From NCBI GenBank assembly GCA_965116475.1, contig OZ220691.1, positions 1,056,001-1,120,000 of the forward strand: 64,000 bases of DNA, in the 5' to 3' direction. The notes below the pieces were generated by a model. The model was not told where the DNA came from and did no database searches. It worked only from the letters and a program-made list of their open reading frames with translations. The DNA comes from Gemmatimonadota bacterium. GTDB lineage: Bacteria; Gemmatimonadota; Gemmatimonadetes; Palauibacterales; Palauibacteraceae. Position 1 is the first letter of the stretch; each line of letters opens with the position of its first letter. Below are positions 21,361 through 35,124 of the stretch, one piece after another. The translations under genes were made by a program, and so were the position numbers.

Positions 21361-22476
21361 ATGGACATCCACGAAGCGATAGCGATCAGCCAGGAGCGAT
21401 TGGCGGGGGAAGGCGCCACCATGCATGACCTGCTCGGGCCCCTGCGAGACAGAATCGCTCCCGTACTGATCGGGGAGCAGGAGTGGGAACACGTGCTGGC
21501 GCGGGCGGGAACCCTGCCGATCACCATGGGTGCCCAGCCGTTCGGTTTCGAGCTGCCGCTGCACGACCGTCGGCCGCGGGCGGATTTCGGCGTCTCGCTG
21601 GCGAGCGGCAACCGGTCGGGGGCGTTTTTCGAAGAGAAGGCGCGACGCGATCCATCGGATCGCACGGCGGCGGCGGTCCGTCGCCTGTTTCGCAGCATGG
21701 AGGCCGCGGACTCGCCCCTCCGCGCCATTGTCGGCCGCAAGCTGATGCTGGAATACGACATCGGGTCGGGGGGCGACGGCGATCCGCTGCCGGGGATGTT
21801 CCTGCGGCCCAACGAACGCACGATCGCCGGCGGCGCCGGGCAGCAGCACGATGTCGGCGTCGTGGTCGACGGACTCGTGGCCTGTCACGACCTGGAACCG
21901 AGCGCGGCGGAGCGGAGCAACGCCGAGCGGGTGTATCTGGCGCAACCGGAAGATACCCGCCTCGACTCCTTCGGCCTGTTTCCGTCACGCGCACGCACGA
22001 TCCGCCTGGCGATCATGGGCTTTGCCGGGCAGCGGGATGTCTGTTCCTTTCTCGAGGAAATCGCCTGGCCCGGCAACATCGCGACCGTGGAGACGGTGCT
22101 TGCACGCTTCAGCGAGCGCGCGGACATCGTCAGGACCGGCGTGAACGTCGACGCGCAGGCGGATGGCATCGGTCCGGCGCTCGGCCTGACGCCCATAGTC
22201 AGGCAGAGATATGCGGCTGATTCCCGGGTCTGGATCGATGGTTTGACGGATTGGCAGCCGGTGCTGGAGGCCCTGCGCCACGAAGACCGTGTAGTGCCGG
22301 AGAAGGTCGCGGCGCTGGCCGGCTGGGTCTCGCAACCGACCCTTCTGTTTGGCAGAACCGGGCGGTTTGTACTGATGCGCGGAATTCACCATCTTAAGCT
22401 GGTCATCGCCGGAGACCGGGTTGAACAGATCAAGGCCTATGTCTACATGGTGCTTTCGGGTGCCCTCGCGCCCTGA
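21361..22476 (+). CDS. Hypothetical protein of the RiPP cluster (possible PT-barrel prenyltransferase fold)
   Basis: Clean 371-aa ORF directly upstream of the halogenase; FGFE, LEYD, WPG, C-terminal HLKL...KAY; fold call is speculative. Confidence 0.6.
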   Translation: MDIHEAIAISQERLAGEGATMHDLLGPLRDRIAPVLIGEQEWEHVLARAGTLPITMGAQPFGFELPLHDRRPRADFGVSLASGNRSGAFFEEKARRDPSDRTAAAVRRLFRSMEAADSPLRAIVGRKLMLEYDIGSGGDGDPLPGMFLRPNERTIAGGAGQQHDVGVVVDGLVACHDLEPSAAERSNAERVYLAQPEDTRLDSFGLFPSRARTIRLAIMGFAGQRDVCSFLEEIAWPGNIATVETVLARFSERADIVRTGVNVDAQADGIGPALGLTPIVRQRYAADSRVWIDGLTDWQPVLEALRHEDRVVPEKVAALAGWVSQPTLLFGRTGRFVLMRGIHHLKLVIAGDRVEQIKAYVYMVLSGALAP

Positions 22477-22512: not shown

Positions 22513-23823
22513 GTGAAGGAACTCGGCAGCGGATCGTGCAGGAAGATTGCCGTCGTCGGACGCGGCACCGCGGGCGCGCTGGCCGCCGCCAGCGTATCGC
22601 GGTTGCAGCCGGAGCCCGAGCATGAGCTGCACCACATCTACGATTCACGCATTCCGATCATCGGCGTGGGCGAAGGAAGCTGGCCCGGCCTGGTCCGCGA
22701 GCTGCAGCACCTGCTGCAGTTGCCCCACGAGACGGTTCAGCAACGCCTGAACGGCACCCGCAAGTTCGGCAACCGCTTCGAGGGCTGGGGTCGACGCCGA
22801 CAGGACTTCACTCACTACTTCACGCCGCAACAGGTGGCCTACGCCTACCACCTGTCGGCGGACCTGATGGCGGAGCTGCTGTGCGCGAGTACGCAGGCCC
22901 GCCACATCGACGCGAAGGTGACCGCGATCCGGCGAGTGAACGGAGGCGCACAGGTAGAGTTCGAGGACCGTGAGTCCGAGCGCTACGACCTGGTCTTCGA
23001 TGCCCGCGGCTATCCACGGCAACTGGACCCGCAGAAGCACATCGACATTTCCTTCATCCCCACGAACTGCGCCGTCATTCGCCGCGCCCCCCCGGTCATC
23101 GAGGCGCCGCCGAACGCGCCGGTCCGGGAACCCACGTATACCCGTGCAGTGGCGCGTCCGCACGGATGGGTGTTCGTCATTCCGCTGACCGTGCACACAT
23201 CCTACGGCTATGTCTTCAACAAGGACGTGTCCGGGCTCGATGCGGTCGAGGCGGACTTCGACGAGCTGCTTGCGGAGGAGGGTGTGTCGGACTTCGAGCA
23301 GCGCGCCGTCATTCCGTTTCCGAATTTCGTCCACCGCCGGATCTATGACGGCGCCGTGGCCCGCGTCGGGAATGCCGCCGCCTTCATGGAGCCGCTCGAA
23401 GCGACCGCCATCAGGTTGGCGCAACTGCAGGTCGCGCTGATTCTGCGCATGCGGTTCCACCGGCCAGCCGAATATGTGCAGCGCGACGCGCCCGTCATCA
23501 ACCGCTTTCTGGTCACCGACGCGCTCCTGGCCGGCCTGTTCGTCGGTTGGCACTATTCCTGCGGTTCGAAGTACGACAGTGCGTTCTGGCGCAACGCCCG
23601 GGACCGCGTGTGGCCGAACCACCGCGACGCCGCCGATCCGCGGGCCGTGGACTGTTCCGCCTTGCGCAAATTCGACGAGATGATCGAACTGGTCGACGCG
23701 CAGGTCCCCGATCCGGCGGACTGGGAGCGGCAGTGCGCGTTCTTTCCCGTGAGCAGCTTCGCGCAGATAGCCCACGGCCTGGGCGTGCCATTGGAGTGGC
23801 AGCGCGACGCCCGGCCGACGTAG
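22513..23823 (+). CDS. Flavin-dependent tryptophan-halogenase-family enzyme (SrpI-like peptidyl halogenase)
   Basis: GRGTAG FAD motif, IIGVGEG, catalytic Lys region TRKFG, GWVFVIP (WxWxIP-like), FMEPLEAT. Confidence 0.88.
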   Translation: MKELGSGSCRKIAVVGRGTAGALAAASVSRLQPEPEHELHHIYDSRIPIIGVGEGSWPGLVRELQHLLQLPHETVQQRLNGTRKFGNRFEGWGRRRQDFTHYFTPQQVAYAYHLSADLMAELLCASTQARHIDAKVTAIRRVNGGAQVEFEDRESERYDLVFDARGYPRQLDPQKHIDISFIPTNCAVIRRAPPVIEAPPNAPVREPTYTRAVARPHGWVFVIPLTVHTSYGYVFNKDVSGLDAVEADFDELLAEEGVSDFEQRAVIPFPNFVHRRIYDGAVARVGNAAAFMEPLEATAIRLAQLQVALILRMRFHRPAEYVQRDAPVINRFLVTDALLAGLFVGWHYSCGSKYDSAFWRNARDRVWPNHRDAADPRAVDCSALRKFDEMIELVDAQVPDPADWERQCAFFPVSSFAQIAHGLGVPLEWQRDARPT

Positions 23824-25044: not shown

Positions 25045-25282
25045 CGTCCCTGGAACCTCCGCTCCCACGGTCCATCGGTGAGCCTCGGCATCATCCTCCC
25101 CCCGTTCGCGCCCACGGTCACGCCGACACCGGCAATCTACATTCTCAGCGTAGTACCGAACACTCGGCGGCGATTCCGACACCTGCACTGCGTACTCGGA
25201 CGTCCTATATTCCCCCGATTCTCCGCTCAATCCGAACGGGATTGTCCGTGCTCGATACCTGGTGGGGAGGCGAGGCAGGGTC

Positions 25283-25834
25283 GTGTTCAATAATCCGTTT
25301 GATTCGTTTCACGACACCGTTGCTGAAGCAAAGCAGGAACGGGAACAACTCGACCGGCTGCTGACGATTTCCACGCCCCGGGAGCGTCTGCTCGTCGCCG
25401 GCGTCGGGCTGTGGTTGTTGATCTTCGTGACGTGGCTCTTCTTCGGTAACGTAGCCCGCAGCCTCGCGGTGGACGGTGTGCTCGTCGACCCCGGCACAAA
25501 CCTGTCCGAAGCCGGCCGGTCCGTGCAGGCGCTGGTCTGGATCGAGAACGACGTCGCGCCGCAGATCAGGGCAGGGATGCCGGCGGTGATGGAGCTGGGT
25601 GCGGCGGCTGGAGAAGCGGGCGCGATGAGCGCAGAAGTCGCGGCGATTTCCGCCGTTCGCTCGTCCGAGGTTCCCGCCGCCTTCGAGTCTGCGGTGCCGA
25701 TGTCGTTGCACCGCCTCGATATCGCGCTGGACGAGAACCTCGACCTTGCCGCCATGGCGGGCAGGGAATGCCGGATCGTCATCGATATGGGCACGCAGTC
25801 TCCGGTCGCGTTCTTGCGGATGGGGCGGTCATGA
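25283..25834 (+). CDS. Short NHLP secretion (HlyD/membrane-fusion-like) protein
   Basis: EQLDRLL.I.TPR followed by TM helix and W.FFG; C-terminal G..C...I....QSP; directly upstream of the C39 transporter. Confidence 0.7.
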   Translation: MFNNPFDSFHDTVAEAKQEREQLDRLLTISTPRERLLVAGVGLWLLIFVTWLFFGNVARSLAVDGVLVDPGTNLSEAGRSVQALVWIENDVAPQIRAGMPAVMELGAAAGEAGAMSAEVAAISAVRSSEVPAAFESAVPMSLHRLDIALDENLDLAAMAGRECRIVIDMGTQSPVAFLRMGRS

Positions 25835-25835
25835 T

Positions 25836-28046
25836 ATGGCGCTGACCGCCTTCGGGCGCGCTGGCGACAAGGCCGCACCGAGCGTCGAGACACGGCGGAT
25901 CACCACGCCGATCCTGTTGCAGATGCACGCGTCGGAATGTGGCGCCGCCTGCCTCGGCAGCATCCTCGCCTACTTCGGACGCTGGGTTCCGCTGACGGAA
26001 TTGCGGGAAAGATGCGAGGTGAGTCGGGACGGGAGCAGTGCGGCGAGCATCGCGCGCGCCGCCAGGCACTACGGCCTCGAATGCAGCGGACTCAGCCTGC
26101 GCGCCAGTCAGCTGAAGAAGTTGCAGTTGCCTCTGATCGTGTTCTGGCAGTTCAGCCATTTCGTTGTCCTCGAGGGGTTCGACAGTCGCCACTTCTATCT
26201 CAATGATCCGTCCACGGGGCGGCGCAGGCTTTCGGCGGAAGAGTTCGAAAAGGGCTACAGCGGGATTGCGCTGCGATTCAAGCGGGGCTCCGGTTTCAGA
26301 CCCGGCGGCGAACAGCCCGGATTGTTCACGCAGTTGGGCACCCTGCTCGCCGGATCGCGGAGCGTGCTTGCCTGGGTGATTGCCTGCGGTCTCATGTTGA
26401 CGCTGCTGGCCCTTGTCGTCCCCGCATCCCTCAGCGTGTTCGTGGACGATGTTCTGGAGAACCGGGGCCCCTGGGGCGGGCTCGTGGCTGCCCTGCTCGG
26501 CGGCGGCATCCTCGTGTACGTCCTGTCCCTGCTCAAGCATCGGTTCCTGAAGCGGTTCGCGGTTCGGATCTCGGTGATTGGCTACAGTCGAGGCCTGTCG
26601 CGGCTGCTGCGGCTGCCGGTGGAGTTTTTCGAACACCGTCTCGTAGGCGATCTGACGGATCGAGTCTCGTCCATCGACAGAATCGCCAGGAACCTGACGG
26701 AACAGTTCCTGGTGCTCGTTATCGACATGGGAATGAGCGCCGTGCTGCTCGTTGCCATGTTGGTCTACGATGTCCGGCTCACGCTGGTTGTGTTGCTTCT
26801 GGCCTTTCTGCACGGCGTGCTGGCGCACTTTCTCAACGGGCTCAGGGCGGTGCGAAGCCAGGCGATGAGGCGCGAACAGGGACTGTTGATCGGCGTCGGC
26901 ATGCAGATGCTGAATCACGCCGACAATCTGCGCATGACGGGATCGGACGACCGTCTGTTTTCGCGCTGGAGCGGCCATCAGGCGCGCGAACTGGAGGCCC
27001 GCCGGCACTATTCCGCGCTCGGCTCGGTCAACACCGCGCTCCCGGGCATGATCGCCGCACTTCGCAGCGCGGCGGTCCTGGCCATCGGGGGAAGCCTGAT
27101 CCTGGCCGGAGAGATGACCCTGGGCGCGCTGGTCGGGTTCTATATCCTGGCCGAGATGTTCCTGTCGCCGGTTGGGCGCTTCCTGGAGTTCGCCGGGCAG
27201 CGCCAGGCGCTCGAAACCGATCTGCAGCGACTCGAGGATATCTCGAAGGCCGCGGAAGACCCCGCCTTCAGCCGCCGGAGTCCGCAGTCGGAGTCGATTC
27301 CCACCTTCAAGGGCCGGTTCCAGCTCACCGGCCGGCTCGAGCTGCGAGACGTCAGCTTCGGCTTCAACAAGAGCCGGCCCGCTCTGATCAAGGACTTCAA
27401 TCTCGTAATCATGCCGGGGCAGCGGGTTGCCGTGGTCGGTCCCAGCGGATCCGGCAAGTCGACCCTCGCGCGTCTGATTGGCGGTCTCTATCAGCCCTGG
27501 TCCGGCGAAATCCTGTTCGATGGCCACCCCCGGGATGAGATTCCCGAGGAGGTGCTGCGGCGGTCCATCTCCATGGTGGATCAGGAGGTCGTGCTCTTTT
27601 CCGCGTCCGTGCGCGACAACATCACCCTGTGGAACCCCGCCGTTCCGGATGAGGCCATCTTCGCGGCGACACGCGATGCCCAGATCCACGACGAAATCCT
27701 GCTGCGGCCGAACGGGTACTCGACCCGGGTCGAGGAAGGCGGCGTGAATTTCAGCGGCGGCCAGCGCCAGCGGCTGGAGATCGCCCGGGGGCTGCTGGGC
27801 AATCCGACGCTGCTCATTCTGGATGAGGCGACCAGCGCCCTCGACGCCGCGACGGAGGAATACGTCGATGACGCCCTGAGACGTCGCGGAGTCACCTGCC
27901 TGATCGTGGCGCACCGGCTGAGCACCGTGCGGGACTGCGACGAGATCATCGTGCTCGACAAGGGCGTCGAGGTGCAGCGCGGGACGCATGACGAGCTGAT
28001 GGCGGACCAGGCCGGCACGTACTACAAGCTGGTCAGGTCCGGCTGA
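25836..28046 (+). CDS. NHLP family bacteriocin export ABC transporter, C39 peptidase/permease/ATPase
   Basis: TP.LLQM...ECGAACL, HFVV, NDP catalytic triad; GPSGSGKS, FSGGQRQR, LDEATSALD. Confidence 0.93.
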   Translation: MALTAFGRAGDKAAPSVETRRITTPILLQMHASECGAACLGSILAYFGRWVPLTELRERCEVSRDGSSAASIARAARHYGLECSGLSLRASQLKKLQLPLIVFWQFSHFVVLEGFDSRHFYLNDPSTGRRRLSAEEFEKGYSGIALRFKRGSGFRPGGEQPGLFTQLGTLLAGSRSVLAWVIACGLMLTLLALVVPASLSVFVDDVLENRGPWGGLVAALLGGGILVYVLSLLKHRFLKRFAVRISVIGYSRGLSRLLRLPVEFFEHRLVGDLTDRVSSIDRIARNLTEQFLVLVIDMGMSAVLLVAMLVYDVRLTLVVLLLAFLHGVLAHFLNGLRAVRSQAMRREQGLLIGVGMQMLNHADNLRMTGSDDRLFSRWSGHQARELEARRHYSALGSVNTALPGMIAALRSAAVLAIGGSLILAGEMTLGALVGFYILAEMFLSPVGRFLEFAGQRQALETDLQRLEDISKAAEDPAFSRRSPQSESIPTFKGRFQLTGRLELRDVSFGFNKSRPALIKDFNLVIMPGQRVAVVGPSGSGKSTLARLIGGLYQPWSGEILFDGHPRDEIPEEVLRRSISMVDQEVVLFSASVRDNITLWNPAVPDEAIFAATRDAQIHDEILLRPNGYSTRVEEGGVNFSGGQRQRLEIARGLLGNPTLLILDEATSALDAATEEYVDDALRRRGVTCLIVAHRLSTVRDCDEIIVLDKGVEVQRGTHDELMADQAGTYYKLVRSG

Positions 28047-30982
28047 TGCGGGACACGAGGCCGGGGTACACGTCCATCGCGGAACTCGCCGCCCGCTCCG
28101 GCGAGTCCGTGCCCTGCGCCGGCAACCTGCCGGTGAAGCTCGACGATCCGGACACTGTCTGGTTCATCGATCAGGGCGCCGTCAATCTGTTCCTGGTCGA
28201 ATTCAAGGACGGGGTCGAGCAGGCGGCGCCGCAGCACCTGCTGCGCCGCGAATCGGGCTGGCTGCTGCCGGGCGTCGCGCCGGACGGACCAAACGATGAG
28301 GAAGACACCACGCTCAGCCTGATCGCCAAGGGATCGCCGGGCACCGTCCTGAAACGGCTGTCGGCCTCCGTGCTGTCCGAGGTCGATCCGGCGGAGATGG
28401 CGGAACAGACCGATACCTGGCTGACCGCGATCACGGACACACTCTCGCGTTTTGCGAGCCGCCTTCCGCGTCCGACGGTGCTGGCCAAGCCCGGTCCGAT
28501 GCGGACCCCGGCTCCCTGTACGCTGTCCGTACAGCGCGGCGTCGTATGGGTGTCCGAACCGCCGCGCGGCACCAGCCTCTTCATGGACCTGGTCGACCAG
28601 GCGGAAATCGTCGAGGCGGACGGCTCACACGAAGCGGTGATACCGCTGACGCGAACAAGCTGGATCATCCTGTCCGACGAGGTGACACTCTCGGGCTGGT
28701 CGACGGAGACGCTGGCACAGCGGGGCGTCCTGCTCCCGGCGCTCGCATCCTTCCACGCGGTTGCCTTCGCCCTGGAGCGCCTCAACCGCCGACTGGCCGT
28801 GGTCGATGATGCGAACCTGGAGCGCGCGCGGACCACGAGCCGCCGCACGGTCGAGAGGGCCGCGCGGCAGCGGCTCTTCAATATCTATGATCTGCCGATC
28901 GACCGGGAGACCAGTGTCGAGGACACGTCGCTGGCGGACGCCCTGCAGGCGATCGGACGCCGTGAAGGAATCGATTTCAAGATCCCGGTGCGCTCGGATC
29001 CTTCCGGTCCTCCGGTCAGCCTCGTTGACGTTCTCGATGCTTCGGGCGTGCGCGCCCGGCGCGTGCGGTTCGGGGCCGAGGGCGCCTGGTGGCGCGGCGA
29101 CAGCAACGCGATGCTGGCATTTCGCGCCGAAGACGGCCAACCCGTGGCGCTCCTGCCAGGATGGCTGGGCCGCTACCGGGAATTCGATCCGGTCAGCAAG
29201 CGCAGCGTTCGGATGACGGCGGATCGTGCCGCTGCGCTGGCGGATGGGGCCTGGGTGTTCTACCGGCCACTGCCGGTGGGGAACGTGCAACCGGCGGACC
29301 TGCTGAGGATCGCGCTGCATGGATCGGCGGCGGATCTGGCGCGGCTGGTGATGGCCGGGCTTCCGGGCGGCCTGATCAAGCTCGTGCCGGCGTTCGCGCT
29401 CGGGTTCGTTGCGAACCAGACGGCGGCGGGCGGAAGTGCCGGAGCGCTCTATGCCGTGGCCGTGGCGGTGGCGGGGTTCGGCCTGCTCGGCGCACTGCTG
29501 CACCTGTTTCAGGGCACGGTGATGATGCGGATCGAGGGTCGCTCTTCACGGGTCGAAGCGGCCTTCTGGGACCGTCTCATGCGCCTTCCGCCAAGCATGT
29601 TGCACGGCCGTCGGGCCGGCGATCTGGCCGTGTCGGGAATGACGTTCCAGAATCTTCGCGACGGGTTGCAGGGAGTCGCGGCCGACGGCCTGCTGTCGAT
29701 CATTTTTCTGCTCCCGGTGCTTGGCGTCATCTTCCTCTACGATGCCACGCTGGGGACCGTTGCCCTCGCCTTCAGCCTGGCTTCGCTCCTGATCACCGTC
29801 GTCCTCGGGCTGCGCCAGATTCCGCCCTATGGCCGGATGATCCGCGCGGCGCGGCGCGTCTCCGGCCGGCTATTCCAGATCGTGGGCAGCATCGGCAAGC
29901 TGCGTGTGGAAAACGCGGAAGCGTCGGCTTTCGCCATCTGGGCGCAGGACTACCGGGAGCAGAAACGCACGGAACTCGAGCTGGGCGCGCTCGAGGGACA
30001 TTCGCGGGCATTCGGTGCCGCGCTCCCCCTGCTTGCCGCCGGGGTCCTGCTGTTCGCGGCCGTAGCCGTGGACGGGCCCCTCCCGGTCGGCGATTTTCTC
30101 GTCGTCTACCTTGTCTTCATCGCCTTCCAGTCCGCCGTCGCCCGACTCGGCGAGTCCTTTGGCGCGGTCGCCGCCGTGCTCCCGGCGTTCGACCAGATGC
30201 GCCCGCTCCTGGCGGCGGTTCCCGAGGCCGAAGTCGAAGGAGCGCCGGTCGAGTATCTGGGCGGCGACATTTTCTTCGACCGCATTTCCTACCGGTACGA
30301 CCCCGACGGCCCGTTGATCCTCGACGACGTCACGATTCATGCCCGCCCCGGGGAATTCGTCGCGATCGCGGGCGAGTCCGGCGCCGGCAAGAGCACCCTC
30401 TTCCGGTTGGCGCTTGGATTCGACCGGCCCACGTCCGGCGCCGTGTACTACGACGGACGTGACCTGAGGAACCTGAACCTGAAACAGGTGCGCCGCAGGA
30501 TCGGCGTGGTGCCGCAATCCGTTGGACTCCATCCCCTGGATCTCTGGGACAACCTGGTCGGTCACCACGATGAGGTGGCGAGCGACGAGGTCTGGAGCGC
30601 GGCGCGCGTCGCCGATGTCGAAGCGGAGATCAAGGGCATGCCCATGGGCATGATGACCATGGTCGGCACGAGCGGGAATGTCCTGTCGGGCGGCGAGAGT
30701 CAGCGCGTTTCAATCGCCCGGTCGGTGATCGGCAGCCCGCGAATCATGCTCTTCGACGAGGCGACCAACTGGCTGGATAACGAGAGCCAGGCAAAGGTCA
30801 TGCAAAACCTCACCGCCCTGACCTCCACCCGCGTCGTCATCGCGCACCGCCTGTCCACGCTGGAGCAGGCCGATCGCATCTACGTGTTGAAGGCGGGAAG
30901 AGTCGTGCAGAGCGGCTCCTTCAACGAACTCATGGAGGTCGACGGGGTGTTCAGAGACCTGGTCAAGAGGCAGGTCGCCTGA
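28046..30982 (+). CDS. NHLP bacteriocin system ABC transporter permease/ATPase (no peptidase domain)
   Basis: R.R.V......WW..D, PVALLP; GESGAGKS, LSGGE.QR, FDEAT..LDN; long N-terminal extension. Confidence 0.9.
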   Translation: MRDTRPGYTSIAELAARSGESVPCAGNLPVKLDDPDTVWFIDQGAVNLFLVEFKDGVEQAAPQHLLRRESGWLLPGVAPDGPNDEEDTTLSLIAKGSPGTVLKRLSASVLSEVDPAEMAEQTDTWLTAITDTLSRFASRLPRPTVLAKPGPMRTPAPCTLSVQRGVVWVSEPPRGTSLFMDLVDQAEIVEADGSHEAVIPLTRTSWIILSDEVTLSGWSTETLAQRGVLLPALASFHAVAFALERLNRRLAVVDDANLERARTTSRRTVERAARQRLFNIYDLPIDRETSVEDTSLADALQAIGRREGIDFKIPVRSDPSGPPVSLVDVLDASGVRARRVRFGAEGAWWRGDSNAMLAFRAEDGQPVALLPGWLGRYREFDPVSKRSVRMTADRAAALADGAWVFYRPLPVGNVQPADLLRIALHGSAADLARLVMAGLPGGLIKLVPAFALGFVANQTAAGGSAGALYAVAVAVAGFGLLGALLHLFQGTVMMRIEGRSSRVEAAFWDRLMRLPPSMLHGRRAGDLAVSGMTFQNLRDGLQGVAADGLLSIIFLLPVLGVIFLYDATLGTVALAFSLASLLITVVLGLRQIPPYGRMIRAARRVSGRLFQIVGSIGKLRVENAEASAFAIWAQDYREQKRTELELGALEGHSRAFGAALPLLAAGVLLFAAVAVDGPLPVGDFLVVYLVFIAFQSAVARLGESFGAVAAVLPAFDQMRPLLAAVPEAEVEGAPVEYLGGDIFFDRISYRYDPDGPLILDDVTIHARPGEFVAIAGESGAGKSTLFRLALGFDRPTSGAVYYDGRDLRNLNLKQVRRRIGVVPQSVGLHPLDLWDNLVGHHDEVASDEVWSAARVADVEAEIKGMPMGMMTMVGTSGNVLSGGESQRVSIARSVIGSPRIMLFDEATNWLDNESQAKVMQNLTALTSTRVVIAHRLSTLEQADRIYVLKAGRVVQSGSFNELMEVDGVFRDLVKRQVA

Positions 30983-31017
30983 ACCGAATCGGCAGACCGG
31001 AGCATTTCGAGACATCG

Positions 31018-32334
31018 ATGAACGGACCCATGGACGCGGACGATCTCCTCGTATCAAGAGCTCTCGTATCAAGAGCTGATGAAGACGGCGACTTTCGCGA
31101 ACGTCTTCTCCGAAAACCCAGGGAGACCATCGAGACGGAATTCGGCGTGACGCTGGCCGAGGACCATGAGATTCACGTGCACGAAGAGACGTATACCGCG
31201 ACGCACGTGGTGCTCCCGCCGCGGAGCAAGCTCAGCGAGGCCGAACGAGAGGCGGCGAGGACCGGTGCGGCATCGCTCGAGTTTCTTCGAAGGACACTCC
31301 ACGACCCCGCACCACCGCTCCGCCCTCCCGCAGGGCAGGAAGAGGGGGGCCGATGCAGCGGGGCCTCCCCGGAGGCGCTGGCCGGCGCGGCGAGGGAAGG
31401 GATCCGCCGCGGGCTCGCCTTCCTGGAATCCACGATCGACGAGAATGGGGCTTGGCACTGCATCCGGTTCAACGTGGCCGACCCGGAGATCCCCAGGCAT
31501 TTCGAGAGGCCCCCCTTCGTGTCGGCTCTCTGCGTGCTTGCCCTTGAGAGCTCCGATGAGCCGCGGGCCAAGGCGATTTGCACCGCTACGAAGGCATATC
31601 TCATCGACACCATCGAATATCCCGGATTCTGGCGGTACTACCGCCACCTCCCGCCGGATCTCGATAGTACTGCACTCTGTTCGCTCGTCATCGGGACGCA
31701 CCCCTGGATCTTGCTTGGAAGGAACGTTCCGGGGATGCTGGCGAATCGCGACGAGGAAGGCCGCTTCATGACCTGGGTGCTGGCGGAAGACGAACCCGAC
31801 GTCGTGTCGCGCTTTCGCATCGAGGCCGACCCGGTCGTCAATGCGAATGTCCTCGCCTGCCTCGGCGACCATCCGGAAACGAGGGATGCCCAGCTCTGGC
31901 TGGAAGCCCTGGTAACCGAAGGCAACCTCGAGGGCTCGTCGAAGTGGTATCCCGACACGGTCACGATCTACCATGCGATCACACGCGCGATGGTCTGTGC
32001 GGAGCCCGTCCTCGATCGCCTGCGCCCGATACTCGCGGATCGTATCCTCGGCCTGCGTGACGAGAAGGGAGGATTCGGCAATGTCCTTCAGACCGCCCAG
32101 GCGGTGTCGGCGCTCTACAACATCGGAAGCCTCGAGCGCATCGACGCGAAGCGCGAGGTGGAGCGACTGATGAGCTCGCAGCGCGGGGACGGCAGCTGGC
32201 CGGAGCTGCTCGCGTTCGGCGACCAGTCGTTGAAATGGGGCGTGGTAGGGCAGATCGGGCATGGCTCCGAGGCCGTGACCTCCGCGTTCTGCATCGAGGC
32301 CCTGGAGCGGCTCGTCGAAGTGCTGGAGGCCTGA
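31018..32334 (+). CDS. NHLP leader-like domain fused to prenyltransferase/squalene-cyclase-repeat (class II terpene cyclase-like) domain
   Basis: N-term RA.ED..FR..LL..P...I..EFG......I.VHEE.....H.VLP; C-term QW-like motifs (LESTIDENGAW, SSQRGDGSW) and PPDLDST. Confidence 0.75.
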   Translation: MNGPMDADDLLVSRALVSRADEDGDFRERLLRKPRETIETEFGVTLAEDHEIHVHEETYTATHVVLPPRSKLSEAEREAARTGAASLEFLRRTLHDPAPPLRPPAGQEEGGRCSGASPEALAGAAREGIRRGLAFLESTIDENGAWHCIRFNVADPEIPRHFERPPFVSALCVLALESSDEPRAKAICTATKAYLIDTIEYPGFWRYYRHLPPDLDSTALCSLVIGTHPWILLGRNVPGMLANRDEEGRFMTWVLAEDEPDVVSRFRIEADPVVNANVLACLGDHPETRDAQLWLEALVTEGNLEGSSKWYPDTVTIYHAITRAMVCAEPVLDRLRPILADRILGLRDEKGGFGNVLQTAQAVSALYNIGSLERIDAKREVERLMSSQRGDGSWPELLAFGDQSLKWGVVGQIGHGSEAVTSAFCIEALERLVEVLEA

Positions 32335-32339
32335 GCCAG

Positions 32340-34655
32340 ATGACAGCGGAGGCGCACGCGCGCCCCCGGCACGGGATCCTGGCCCGAACGACTCGTGCGG
32401 ACCGGGGCCTTGTCGAGCTTCCGGCTCTCACCCCGCACCTCCGATTCCACGGTATCGGCGAGGCGCAGGTCCTTCTCGTCTCCGAGTCGTTCAATACGCT
32501 GCTGCACGGCAAGCTGCACCGCGATCTGCTGCCGCTGCTCGACGGTCGGCACCCCCGGGACGAGATCGTCGCGGCCCTCGAGGGCGCCCATGCGGCGACC
32601 GATGTCCTGGCGGCCATCGCCGCGTTCGCGGCCAGGGGCTATCTGATCTCCGCCGATCACGGCATGGACCGGGGCCAGGCGGCCTACTGGTCGTCGCTTG
32701 GCGCGTCGCCGCGCTGGGTCGAAGAGCGGCTGGCGCAGTCGCGCGTCACGGTCGAAGGTGACGACGGCGGGCTCGTCCGGCACCTGGAGGCGAACGGCGC
32801 CAGGGTGGGAACCGGCGAACCGAAGCTCACCGTAGTGGTCTGCGGCGACTATCTCGAAGCCGATCTCGCGGAGGTGAATCGGCGCCACCTCGAGGCGGGA
32901 GCGCCGTGGACGCCGGTGCGGCCGAGCGGCATGGAGCCGCTCTTCGGGCCCGTCTTTCGGGCGGACGGGCAGGGACCCTGCTGGGATTGCCTCGCGTACC
33001 GCCTGCGCAGCCACCGGGAAGTCCATGGTTTCCTGCGCAACGTCGCCGGCGAGGAAGCCGCCTTCAGGCCGTTCGCGGCTCAGCCCGCAGTGCTGGAAGC
33101 GATGTACGGGCTGATCGCCGCGGAGATCGTCAAATGGCTGGCGCTGGGTGAGGCGGCCCCGATTCACGACCAGGCGATCGCGATGAATGTCGGCACGTTC
33201 GCAAGCTCGCACCATCGGGTCGTGCGTCGGCCGCAATGCCTGGCCTGCGGCGACGAAGCCTTGCACCGGCCGGATCGACCGCCGGTTCCGGTGTCTCTGA
33301 AGGCGAGCCCCAAGGCCCATCGCAACAGCGGCGGCGCGCGTGCCGTGGCGCCGGGAGCCACCCTGGCGAAGTACAGGCACCTGGTGAGCCCGATCAGCGG
33401 TGTCGTGACGTGGCTGTCGCGCACCACGGATGAGGCCGACTCCTGGCTGCACGTCTACTGGGCCGGGAGCAATCTCGGCATGAGAGGCCGGAGCCTGAGT
33501 TCGCTCAGGCGCAGCCTGCGCAGCAAGAGCGCCGGCAAGGGCAGCACACGACAGCAGTCAAAGGTCAGCGCCCTCTGCGAGGCGGTCGAGCGCTATTCGG
33601 GCGCCCGTCATGGCGACGAGATCCGTATCCGCAAGCGGTTCAGCGAGTTCGAGAGAGAAGAGGCGATCCACCCCAACGAGGTGCAGTTGTTCAGCGAGAG
33701 CCAGCTCGACGACGCGGGGAGCATCAACGCGAAAGGCCACCCCTACAACGTCGTACCGCCGCGTCTCGAGCCCGACGCCGAAATCGACTGGACGCCGGTG
33801 TGGTCGCTGACGCGGCAGCGGCACCGCTACCTGCCGACATCCATCCTCTACAGCATGCCGGCCGAGGAGCGCGGCCCCGCCGACCTGATCGCCGATTCGA
33901 ACGGCTGCGCCGCGGGCAACACCCTGGAAGAGGCCATCCTGCAGGGCTTCTACGAACTGGCCGAGCGCGATGCGTTCGCCATCTGGTGGTACAACCGGTT
34001 GCGGGTGCCGGCAGTCGATCTTTCCAGCTTCGACGACGACTACGTCACCGCGGCCCCGGACTACTACGCCCGTCACGAGCGGGAGCTATGGATGCTCGAC
34101 GTCACCTCCGATATCGGCATCCCCACCTTCGTCGCGCTCTCGCGCCGGCCGGACGCTCGGACCGAGGACATCATCTACGGTGCCGGGACTCACGCCGACC
34201 CGCGCATAGCAGCCCTGCGCGCGCTTTGCGAATTGAACCAGTGCCTTACCTGGCTGCCGCGTCCCGGGGCGGGGGACGGCCGGCCCATGATCGATGATCC
34301 GCTGGCCCTCTGGTGGTGGAAGACCGCCCGGCTCGCCGACTGTCCCTGGCTGGCGCCGGCGCCGGACGAACCGCCCCGCAAGGCCTCGCACTACCCGGTG
34401 ACCGAATCGGCGGACACGCGCGAAGATGTGGAGCATTGCCGCGCGCTCGTCGAGGCCGGCGGCATGGAGTTCCTGGTGCTGGATCAGACGCGGCCCGATA
34501 TCGGCATGCCCGTGGCGCGGGTCATCGTGCCGGGCATGCGCCACTTCTGGGCAAGGCTCGCGCCAGGGCGGCTGTACGACGTACCCGTCAGTATGGGCTA
34601 CCGCGAATCCCCGCTCGCCGAAGCCGACCTGAACCCCGCGCCCGTGATCGCGTAA
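32340..34655 (+). CDS. TOMM cyclodehydratase, fused RRE/E1-like + YcaO (SrpC-like)
   Basis: GP.F....PCW.CL, CLACG, SAGKG, EAVERYS, DSNGCAAG..LEEA..QG.YE..ERD, PGMRHFW.R, C-terminal PAP. Confidence 0.93.
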   Translation: MTAEAHARPRHGILARTTRADRGLVELPALTPHLRFHGIGEAQVLLVSESFNTLLHGKLHRDLLPLLDGRHPRDEIVAALEGAHAATDVLAAIAAFAARGYLISADHGMDRGQAAYWSSLGASPRWVEERLAQSRVTVEGDDGGLVRHLEANGARVGTGEPKLTVVVCGDYLEADLAEVNRRHLEAGAPWTPVRPSGMEPLFGPVFRADGQGPCWDCLAYRLRSHREVHGFLRNVAGEEAAFRPFAAQPAVLEAMYGLIAAEIVKWLALGEAAPIHDQAIAMNVGTFASSHHRVVRRPQCLACGDEALHRPDRPPVPVSLKASPKAHRNSGGARAVAPGATLAKYRHLVSPISGVVTWLSRTTDEADSWLHVYWAGSNLGMRGRSLSSLRRSLRSKSAGKGSTRQQSKVSALCEAVERYSGARHGDEIRIRKRFSEFEREEAIHPNEVQLFSESQLDDAGSINAKGHPYNVVPPRLEPDAEIDWTPVWSLTRQRHRYLPTSILYSMPAEERGPADLIADSNGCAAGNTLEEAILQGFYELAERDAFAIWWYNRLRVPAVDLSSFDDDYVTAAPDYYARHERELWMLDVTSDIGIPTFVALSRRPDARTEDIIYGAGTHADPRIAALRALCELNQCLTWLPRPGAGDGRPMIDDPLALWWWKTARLADCPWLAPAPDEPPRKASHYPVTESADTREDVEHCRALVEAGGMEFLVLDQTRPDIGMPVARVIVPGMRHFWARLAPGRLYDVPVSMGYRESPLAEADLNPAPVIA

Positions 34656-34749
34656 GGAGGGAGCCCCTCCCGTTCGACCTTGTTCAAGGAGGGGGACCCG
34701 GAAGCCGGGGAGCCGGAAGAAGTCAACCGGCGCCCCGGCTAACGGTGAG

Positions 34750-35007
34750 CTACCAGCAGCAGCAGAGCCCGGCCGAGATGGCTTCCATCTGCTCCTCGCT
34801 GATGTGCGGATCCGGCGGCAACGCGAGATGCACCGTCTGCATGTCGCTCTCATGGATCTGGATGTTCATCGAATCGGGAATCGTAATGCCCAACTCGCCG
34901 CTGATCGCAGTCTTCGGATCTGCGAGAAGCTGCTGCCTGAACCCCTCGTCCACGGTGGACTTCTCAACAATCTGCGCGAGCATTTCATCGCCGCTTCGCA
35001 TGGCCAT
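34750..35007 (-). CDS. NHLP/proteusin RiPP precursor, core LCCCW (SrpE-like)
   Basis: Nitrile-hydratase-like leader (D..FRQQLLADPK.AI..ELG..IP..M.I.IHE......LALP), ISEEQMEAISAG cleavage box, then LCCCW*; RBS spacing favours ATG at 35001. Confidence 0.93.
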   Translation of the reverse strand: MAMRSGDEMLAQIVEKSTVDEGFRQQLLADPKTAISGELGITIPDSMNIQIHESDMQTVHLALPPDPHISEEQMEAISAGLCCCW

Positions 35008-35010
35008 TCT

Positions 35011-35049
35011 CCTTCGTTCTACGTTACGAGCCTTCGTTCTACGTTACGA
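35011..35049. repeat. 20-bp tandem duplication immediately upstream of the precursor gene
   Basis: ccttcgttctacgttacgag ccttcgttctacgttacga; overlaps the RBS. Confidence 0.9.
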
Positions 35050-35124
35050 ATCCCGGCACCAACCACACAGAATCGTGATTCCAAGATAAAGTCAAGTCTT
35101 GCGACTCCCTGCCGGTCGAGGTCT

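Follow-up and report, generated by a model that had tools for sequence, protein, structure and literature searches.

A leader-like module joined to a putative class II terpene cyclase in a sponge-symbiont srp proteusin cluster

What could a terpene cyclase-like enzyme contribute to a cluster for a peptide that is ribosomally made and modified after translation (RiPP), and why does it begin with a module that resembles the leader of the peptide precursor itself? This question is raised by one gene in a 64,000-nt stretch of a Gemmatimonadota genome (assembly GCA_965116475.1, contig OZ220691.1, positions 1,056,001 to 1,120,000 of the forward strand; hereafter the window), whose product joins an NHLP leader-like module to a class II terpene cyclase domain and is referred to here as the fusion protein. 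The window contains an LCCCW-core NHLP precursor, a YcaO enzyme, a Trp halogenase and an NHLP exporter, and the cluster is the already described sponge-symbiont srp proteusin cluster, which an earlier sequence-only reading of this DNA had not recognised. We lean, with modest confidence, towards reading the fusion gene as a two-module srp maturase, in which a competent monodomain class II cyclase would act after a separate alpha-beta-beta-alpha (ABBA) prenyltransferase and is attached to a domesticated copy of the leader.

The cyclase domain and layout of the fusion protein

We scanned one genome per species and obtained 302 fusion relatives, of which the best 80 loci were kept. The query consisted of eight aligned fusions, and therefore only fusions were returned. 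The open reading frame (ORF) of the window starts with ATG and is open throughout its 438 codons, and none of the 80 orthologous fusion genes from other genomes, which are 71–90% identical, contained an in-frame stop; the frame is therefore more than a chance one. The gene begins 36 nt after the end of the upstream ATP-binding cassette (ABC) transporter gene (30982) and stops 5 nt upstream of the likely YcaO start (32340). The longest YcaO ORF, from 32235, shares 100 nt with the 3' end of the fusion gene (window 32235–32339, +), and the YcaO orthologues begin at the Met equivalent to 32340. Mean identity to the fusion protein of the window over the 80 orthologues was 57% for the N-terminal tail (residues 1–12, the least conserved part of the module, scorable in just 52 of the 80), 73.6% for the structured nucleus (residues 13–66), 80.7% for the box (residues 67–83), 86.1% for the post-box segment (residues 84–102, the highest value of the whole protein), 32.8% for the tether (residues 103–118) and 83.1% for the cyclase domain (residues 119–438).

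A full-library search yielded 1297 relatives of the cyclase at E-values (E) up to 0.001, mostly stand-alone proteins of about 320 residues that matched residues 117–433. The family profile, built from an alignment of 54 cyclase relatives, matched the class II domain of a bacterial drimenol synthase in the PDB at near full length (E 7.7e-30), followed by squalene-hopene cyclase (SHC, about 5e-26), AstC, SsDMS, the 'prenylcyclase' 6ij1 and MstE. The AlphaFold2 (AF2) model of the fusion protein (pLDDT 86, pTM 0.79) matched the drimenol synthase AsDMS in Foldseek (E 3.5e-12), and VIA comparison gave Z scores of 31.8 for AsDMS (root-mean-square deviation 2.2 Å, 282 residues), 27.9 for 6ij1, 27.8 for MstE and 26.6 for SHC, compared with a baseline of about 18 for unrelated alpha/alpha toroids. 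A LanC-like or protein-prenyltransferase beta-subunit toroid was considered and dropped, as all top profile and fold matches were terpene cyclases. The class II terpene cyclase-like enzyme claimed by the sequence-only reading was thus recovered in both fold and motif by profile, Foldseek and VIA, with no unrelated fold on top in Foldseek, and the PPDLDST string (residues 212–218) and the Pro-rich linker (residues 96–107) that it named are present. Its QW-like repeats stood in part: one true QW motif, QRGDGSW (residues 388–394), is the sole such repeat with Gln, while the other repeats lack Gln, and residues 141–146 and 246–253 are degenerate G-x-W turns. The only stretch matched by Pfam SQHop_cyclase_C (residues 357–397, E 3.5e-5, under the cut-off) encloses QRGDGSW.

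Across the 54 family members, the consensus of the motif region was LPPDLDDTA (DLDDTA in the unfused relatives), and D216, N277, Q388 and G392 were invariant, with W394 nearly so. In the fusions the motif reads D-L-D-S-T-A, and its residues D, L, D and S (214–217) were invariant in 80/80 orthologues. D216 falls on the position of D333N in chain 9m7d in the profile alignment, in which the drimenol synthases show D-L-D-T-T at this site; DxDTT is in use as a motif name (PMC9128629). In AsDMS, D331, D333 and Y427 are reported to be essential by mutagenesis, with Y427 activating the catalytic Asp, and the substrate is described as bound at the middle of its one beta domain, independently of Mg (PMC12365925). 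In a hidden Markov model (HMM) alignment mapped by hand, these three residues correspond to D214, D216 and Y311 of the fusion protein, and Y311 was present in at least 90% of the 54 family members and in 8/8 aligned fusions. By alignment only, AsDMS F281, F318, Y319 and F509 correspond to F167, Y207, Y208 and F400, so that 4 of the 6 mapped positions of the lining that would stabilise the cation are aromatic. The cyclase domain thus looks catalytically competent, judged by the residues it retains.

The leader-like module

The N-terminal module belongs to the surroundings of the NHLP leader family without fully entering it. Residues 13–79 matched TIGR03793 (leader_NHLP; E 4.4e-12) with 45.7 bits, and the fusion scored 49.5 bits in the genome scan, both under the curated cut-off of 50.9, compared with 67.6 bits for the true precursor. 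The Pfam NHase_alpha (PF02979) match of the module reached 28.0 bits against a cut-off of 27.2. In BLASTP the module aligned without gaps to the 85-residue precursor of its own cluster over 72 residues (32% identity, E 2e-15), compared with 40–45% identity to the leaders of the clusters with unfused cyclases described below, and it also matched the nuclear magnetic resonance structure of an NHLP (8TB1, E 9e-4) and nitrile hydratase alpha chains (E 2e-6). The proline pair and acidic region of NHLP leaders are retained. The leader-like N-terminus put forward in the sequence-only reading is borne out by the TIGR03793, NHase_alpha, precursor and 8TB1 matches. The NHLP model matched three proteins in the genome: the precursor, the fusion protein and, some 100 kb from the cluster, the alpha subunit of a genuine nitrile hydratase. 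The latter (L084:961-1752, which is about 1190257–1191048 of G000:C1) has a His-rich N-terminus and a Cys-rich metal site and is followed by a likely beta subunit.

The box-like string LSEAEREAARTG is present at residues 72–83, as had been noted, and its reading as a cleavage box proved superficial. We aligned the boxes of the 80 fusions and compared them with those of 61 real precursors. Gly at position −1 (G83) was shared by 80/80 fusions and 61/61 precursors, and position −12 was Phe or Leu in 72/80 fusions and Ile, Met or Leu in 61/61 precursors. In contrast, position −7 was Arg (Arg77) in 80/80 fusions and Leu or Met in 61/61 precursors, position −4 was Ala (A80) in 80/80 fusions and Ile or Val in 61/61 precursors, and position −2 was Thr in 65/80 fusions and Ala in 61/61 precursors. 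The L(X)4L recognition motif is therefore broken at its second position, Arg77, in all 80 fusions. The fusion protein also departs from a double-Gly-type site, with T-G at the junction, Ala at −4, Arg at −7 and 355 residues of linker and enzyme downstream instead of a short core.

Published work assigns several roles to this motif. In the MprE7/MprC pair, the L70A/L75A mutant is reported to lose the YcaO product, the motif being needed together with helix alpha-1, which contacts the RiPP recognition element (RRE) in the MprE7/MprC model and whose mutation lowers turnover (PMC12455567). SrpI bromination is likewise reported to be abolished by mutating the L(X)4L hydrophobics, and these residues have been described and modelled as the contact for C39 peptidase domains (PMC12715784). 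Because the hydrophobics at −7 and −4 are replaced by Arg and Ala in 80/80 fusions, cleavage, export or canonical RRE docking of the module is unlikely. We argue that the invariant Arg and Ala point to selection on a different function and not to decay. Having lost L(X)4L and the hydrophobics at −4 and −7, the module would not be a cleavable leader, yet it is under strong constraint. The post-box segment, which occupies the place of the core peptide, contains no Cys or Trp, and its residues S86, L90, T93, P97, A98, P99 and R102 were invariant in 80/80 orthologues. A complex prediction for YcaO (771 residues) with residues 1–112 of the fusion protein scored 0.00, with the controls unfolded and the partner fold uncertain, and is neutral on binding. 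Taken together, we read the module as a captured precursor leader that was domesticated for a new role, with a flexible tether between it and the enzyme.

A putative prenyltransferase partner in the srp cluster

Just upstream of the halogenase gene lies a 371-residue unannotated ORF, whose homologues are labelled 'hypothetical protein'. It matched no Pfam or NCBIfam family and no PDB sequence at E up to 10. A language-model (ESM) search pointed to Trp_DMAT prenyltransferases (score 0.90), and its AF2 model (pLDDT 84) showed an alpha-beta-beta-alpha repeat pattern. Every Foldseek match listed for this model was an ABBA aromatic prenyltransferase (TM about 0.5, 7–17% identity), and in VIA the indole prenyltransferase MpnD gave a Z score of 17.0 over 304/371 residues, all 50 matches listed being ABBA proteins. 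An alignment of 28 homologues contained many invariant Arg, Lys and Tyr residues. We propose from the modelled fold that this ABBA-like protein may be the prenyltransferase partner of the cyclase.

The neighbourhood of the fusion gene is consistent with such a pairing. In the 52 loci with full 10-kb flanks, we counted the genes within 10 kb of the fusion (Table 1), and the ABBA-like gene was its most faithful neighbour, above YcaO, precursor and halogenase. The two genes were 8.5 kb apart in the window, with a median of 6.1 kb in 51 loci. The commonest gene order was cyclase, desaturase-GlnE, YcaO, ABBA and precursor, and adjacency to the exporter was absent in most loci. The LCCCW core was almost uniform, its five positions being kept in 61, 60, 61, 60 and 61 of 61 loci.

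A separate metagenome scan that included unfused relatives returned 80 loci, 20 of which were srp-type fusions. In 6 loci (L089, L098, L103, L110, L111 and L112), a divergent ABBA-like gene, 30% identical to that of the window (E 1e-26), lay directly upstream of an unfused cyclase with 40% identity and a DNDD motif. In 4 loci (L089, L098, L103 and L125), tandem NHLP precursors with canonical L(X)4L and G-G followed directly downstream of the unfused cyclase, and Trp was present in all 8 complete cores of 6–10 residues among those listed. No YcaO gene was found within the available stretches of these unfused-type loci. They form a second, simpler cluster type, consisting of a divergent ABBA-like gene, an unfused DNDD cyclase and two or three tandem NHLP precursors. 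At L143:302-1624, only ten bases separate an unfused cyclase gene from the end of a preceding NHLP-like ORF that has a Trp close to its C-terminus, and a leader-cyclase fusion could arise from such an arrangement by stop-codon loss.

Natural prenyltransferase-cyclase fusions also occur within the cyclase family. In hhalign, 295 columns of the srp ABBA profile aligned with the N-terminal half of fusion P0202 (E 6.7e-4, probability 27%; BLASTP E 0.003), and P0202 alone did so, since hhalign of the profile against P0205, P0208, P0209 and P0261 was negative. P0205 had a weak Trp_DMAT match, and BLASTP found no similarity between it and the ABBA-like ORF of the window. Distant unfused relatives adjoined UbiA or polyprenyl-synthase-like genes in 4/12 loci scanned.

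The precursor, YcaO, halogenase and exporter genes agree with the published srp system, in which, for the proteins SrpE, SrpC and SrpI, SrpC is reported to make three thiazolines and SrpI to put bromine on C6 of the C-terminal Trp. SrpC is described as poorly active in E. coli with the precursor, giving partly modified products (PMC10286304). Few biosynthetic gene clusters of sponge microbiomes are reported to be as widespread and as highly transcribed as the srp clusters, and one survey credits the latter with 'several genes of unknown function'. The srp literature searched, which deals with SrpE, SrpC and SrpI and does not extend to the founding JACS 2021 srp paper, the Chem 2024 paper of Hubrich et al. 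and one supplement, mentions neither a cyclase nor a prenyltransferase for srp or proteusin clusters and describes no final srp product. No flavin mononucleotide (FMN) azoline dehydrogenase and no full-length HlyD-type adaptor were seen in the cluster of the window. A 190-residue ORF (25262–25834, +), conserved in 39/52 loci, gave only a weak match (E 0.0018), confined to positions 1–50 of the HlyD protein of NHLP systems. The desaturase-GlnE fusion is a conserved cluster member, usually located between cyclase and YcaO. In the second ABC subunit, some 290 residues at the N-terminus (28046–28925, +) fall outside TIGR03797 and have no Pfam match, and they are a candidate docking site for leader-like modules.

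Across the best 80 of 302 loci, the record titles covered at least 8 phylum-level labels, and the closest proteins were named Candidatus Palauibacter and other sponge-metagenome assembled genomes. The genome of the window contained a single cyclase copy, and the cyclase family occurred in 14/301 genomes of a phylum sample and in 4/16 of the genus of the window. An unfused relative in that sample (genome G033) lies on a 2.6-kb contig, and its neighbourhood is uninformative. The counts within the phylum and the 71–90% identity across phyla fit a horizontally spread island. Contigs of one sponge metatranscriptome covered 30/30 bins of positions 30900–35100 at 90% or more; they were mostly at 90–95%, and so came from relatives, and DNA carry-over is possible, so they are no proof of transcription.

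Table 1. Features of the fusion gene and of the srp cluster in the window, with the number of loci in which each gene lies within 10 kb of the fusion.
Feature	Position	Strand	Evidence	Loci within 10 kb
Entire fusion gene (438 codons and stop), from NHLP-like module through tether to class II terpene cyclase	31018..32334	+	ORF list, domain searches, 80/80 orthologues intact	
Perfect 15-nt tandem duplication, LVSRA twice, +5 residues in helix alpha-1	31048..31077	+	Repeat search	
NHLP-like module (residues 13-83), made up of a structured nucleus (13-66) and a pseudo cleavage box (67-83) with T-G at its end	31054..31266	+	TIGR03793, BLASTP, 8TB1	
Post-box segment, residues 84-102	31267..31323	+	Conservation in 80 orthologues	
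Variable tether, residues 103-118	31324..31371	+	Identity averaged over 80 orthologues	
Class II terpene cyclase domain of monodomain (beta) type, residues 119-438	31372..32331	+	Profile, Foldseek, VIA	
Putative general-acid motif D214-L-D216-S-T (variant of DxDD(TA))	31657..31671	+	D216 aligns with AsDMS D333	
Y311, equivalent of AsDMS Y427	31948..31950	+	Hand-read HMM alignment	
QW-type motif, Q388 to W394	32179..32199	+	Family alignment	
ABBA (DMATS-type) aromatic prenyltransferase fold, 371 aa, proposed supplier of prenylated substrate	21361..22476	+	AF2, Foldseek, VIA	51/52
Flavin-dependent Trp halogenase (SrpI-like brominase)	22513..23823	+	Pfam Trp_halogenase E 4.9e-46	44/52
NHLP-type exporter subunit with C39 peptidase domain (PCAT)	25746..28046	+	Peptidase_C39 E 1.1e-34; TIGR03796 E 1.8e-252	39/52
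Second NHLP exporter ABC subunit	28046..30982	+	TIGR03797 E 2.8e-197	41/52
E1-like/YcaO fused cyclodehydratase with N-terminal winged-helix RRE (SrpC-like)	32340..34655	+	YcaO E 3.6e-97; TIGR03604; TIGR03882	49/52
NHLP precursor (SrpE-like), leader end A-G, core LCCCW	34750..35007	-	TIGR03793	47/52
Membrane FA_desaturase-like and GlnE-like nucleotidyltransferase fusion, 695 aa	35125..37212	-	Pfam FA_desaturase E 2.5e-21, GlnE E 4.1e-8	47/52

Proposed role, rival readings and known systems

Most likely, the cyclase closes rings in a polyprenyl group carried by the C-terminal Trp of the precursor. In the proposed sequence, YcaO would convert the three Cys of the LCCCW core to thiazolines and the halogenase would brominate the C-terminal Trp at C6, both steps shown by others, and the ABBA enzyme would then furnish this Trp with a polyprenyl chain of probably C15 or C20. 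With Y311 holding it and D214 behind it, D216 would protonate the distal double bond and start cationic ring closure, and the PCAT exporter would cut after A-G and export the product. Through the NHLP module, the cyclase would be tethered either to the precursor or to the machinery that handles leaders, and this tether would stand in for the covalent bond between prenyltransferase and cyclase in NctPC-type enzymes. The calculated [M+H]+ of the prenylated 79Br tri-thiazoline core is 855.275 for C15 (+204.19) or 923.338 for C20 (+272.25). Cyclisation of a prenyl group on the RiPP, the chemistry suggested by the sequence-only reading, gains strong contextual support from the conserved ABBA-like gene and from the NctPC/ChrPC precedent. 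More tentatively, the module may be a precursor peptide captured in frame, now a leader mimic that occupies the leader-binding site of a dimeric pathway enzyme or of the exporter and assembles the enzymes around the precursor, with ring closure, the last and very hydrophobic step on the brominated tri-thiazoline peptide, at the export hand-over. If so, nature would offer an example of a tailoring enzyme recruited by a leader in cis, and the most widespread peptide cluster of sponge microbiomes would make a terpene-annelated peptide.

Several observations weigh against the two-module maturase. The ABBA assignment comes from predicted fold alone, at 6–14% identity in VIA, and the domain-search results contain no polyprenyl diphosphate synthase in the cluster. 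The srp literature searched mentions no prenylated or terpenylated srp product, and azoline formation and bromination are reported to have been reconstituted without the cyclase or ABBA genes. Within the cyclase, the fourth Asp of DxDD is Ser, AsDMS F328 and F518 correspond to Leu211 and His415, so that the pocket differs from those of characterised enzymes, and the residue mapping was read by hand from the HMM alignment, with no superposition. The module of the window itself carries the 15-nt duplication in helix alpha-1, which is missing from the other 7 of 8 aligned fusions. Tethering is the most likely role of the module, and it is also the weakest step of the proposal.

Three other explanations give the module a different task. 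It might be a working leader, in which case the C39 domain of PCAT would cut after T-G and the 355-residue cyclase would be exported, to cyclise the exported prenyl-peptide or to serve another role. The invariant Gly at −1, the Phe or Leu at −12 and the position of the fusion gene directly downstream of two exporter genes in the window speak for this, as does the report that conservation of NHLP follows that of the exporter more than that of tailoring enzymes (Haft et al. 2010). However, Arg, Ala and mostly Thr stand at −7, −4 and −2 where all precursors carry Leu/Met, Ile/Val and Ala, the lost hydrophobics are those described as the C39 contact (PMC12715784), the segment behind the putative site is the most conserved of the protein, which is unusual for a new cargo N-terminus, and in most loci the fusion gene lies apart from the exporter, whose genes are within 10 kb in 39–41/52; we regard export as quite unlikely. 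An unlikely reading, too, is that the module docks the cyclase on the YcaO RRE like the precursor leader, recruiting the cyclase or activating YcaO in trans. It would explain the poor activity of SrpC with the precursor alone in E. coli (PMC10286304), and it agrees with the retained helix alpha-1 and structured nucleus, with the alpha-1 contact and lowered turnover reported for MprE7/MprC (PMC12455567) and with the YcaO gene lying directly next in the window. Against it stand the requirement for L(X)4L alongside alpha-1, given that L70A/L75A loses the product and the second position is Arg in 80/80 fusions, the 5-residue duplication in alpha-1 of the copy in the window, and the poor conservation of the N-terminal tail. 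We give very little credence to a giant precursor, in which S86 and T93 would be modified by the cluster enzymes to switch on or anchor the cyclase; the post-box segment sits exactly in the core-peptide place and is the most conserved stretch, with an invariant Ser and Thr, but it lacks the Cys and C-terminal Trp that known srp chemistry targets, and the recognition motif for YcaO and the brominase is broken.

The last alternative concerns the enzyme instead of the module. The cyclase-like domain could be non-catalytic on the peptide, acting in binding, immunity or as a chaperone for a lipophilic product, or it could cyclise a small molecule such as farnesyl diphosphate (FPP). Alpha/alpha toroids also serve as binding domains, relatives show weak TED_complement Pfam matches, the DxDD motif is degenerate (DLDS) and the closest solved relative uses free FPP. 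However, D214 and D216 are invariant in 80/80 orthologues and Y311 in 8/8, the drimenol synthases themselves carry D-L-D-T-T, the gene co-occurs tightly with the ABBA-like gene and Trp-ending precursors, and NctPC/ChrPC provide a published RiPP precedent, which makes a role away from the peptide improbable in our view.

The two-module maturase has consequences for the srp product. The conserved srp core seems to include the ABBA-like gene and the cyclase, which are more faithful to the cluster than the brominase, and a lipidated, ring-closed product is predicted. This suggests a ring-closed lipid, so far unreported, on a peptide that is widespread in sponges, and missing partners such as the cyclase and ABBA genes may partly explain the poor reconstitution of YcaO with the precursor. 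We came across no further tailoring enzyme that carries a leader-peptide-like domain, and in the fusion architecture nature provides a case in which to test the way RiPP enzymes are organised by structured NHLP leaders.

Among known systems, the window resembles the published srp clusters in its LCCCW core, NHLP leader, YcaO, brominase, exporter and wide spread over sponge-symbiont phyla. The module shares the fold family of NHLP/proteusin leaders at 32–45% identity, whereas it falls under the family cut-off, has lost L(X)4L and the −4 hydrophobic, and carries an enzyme in place of a short core. AsDMS (9M7D/9M7F/9MHS), through its TC-beta domain, is the best profile and structural match of the cyclase domain and shares the Asp-x-Asp plus Tyr triad and a Thr or Ser in place of the fourth Asp of the motif; unlike the fusion protein, it carries a fused HAD phosphatase and takes free FPP as its substrate, at about 20% identity. 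MstE (6SBB-6SBG) is, like the cyclase domain, a stand-alone beta-domain cyclase, and its substrate, a prenylated aromatic without diphosphate, offers the closest functional analogy to a prenyl-indole, although it shares 16% identity, acts on a small molecule and has no leader-like module. The Nct product is reportedly a heterocycle-bearing proteusin.

The closest parallel in RiPP chemistry is provided by the prenyltransferase-cyclase (PC) maturase NctPC (Hubrich et al., Chem 2024), in which an ABBA-fold prenyltransferase shares one polypeptide with an MstE-like cyclase and which is reported to geranylgeranylate a RiPP Trp and then cyclise the prenyl group, and by ChrPC, for which the same reaction sequence is described with another prenyltransferase fold (PMC13290415). 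As in the srp cluster, an MstE-like monodomain cyclase is paired with a peptide prenyltransferase, the likeness being drawn from the VIA match of the fusion protein to MstE and not from the NctPC sequence, and the target is a Trp of a ribosomal peptide, a residue present in the srp core in all 61 precursors. In contrast to NctPC and ChrPC, the 438 residues of the srp fusion protein contain no prenyltransferase domain, the ABBA-like protein being a separate ORF, and the cyclase is joined to an NHLP leader-like module instead; the presumed target Trp is C-terminal and brominated, and the srp prenyl chemistry is predicted from genes only. Since prenyl cyclisation on a RiPP Trp has been known since 2024, the srp fusion represents a variant of this chemistry and not a new principle.

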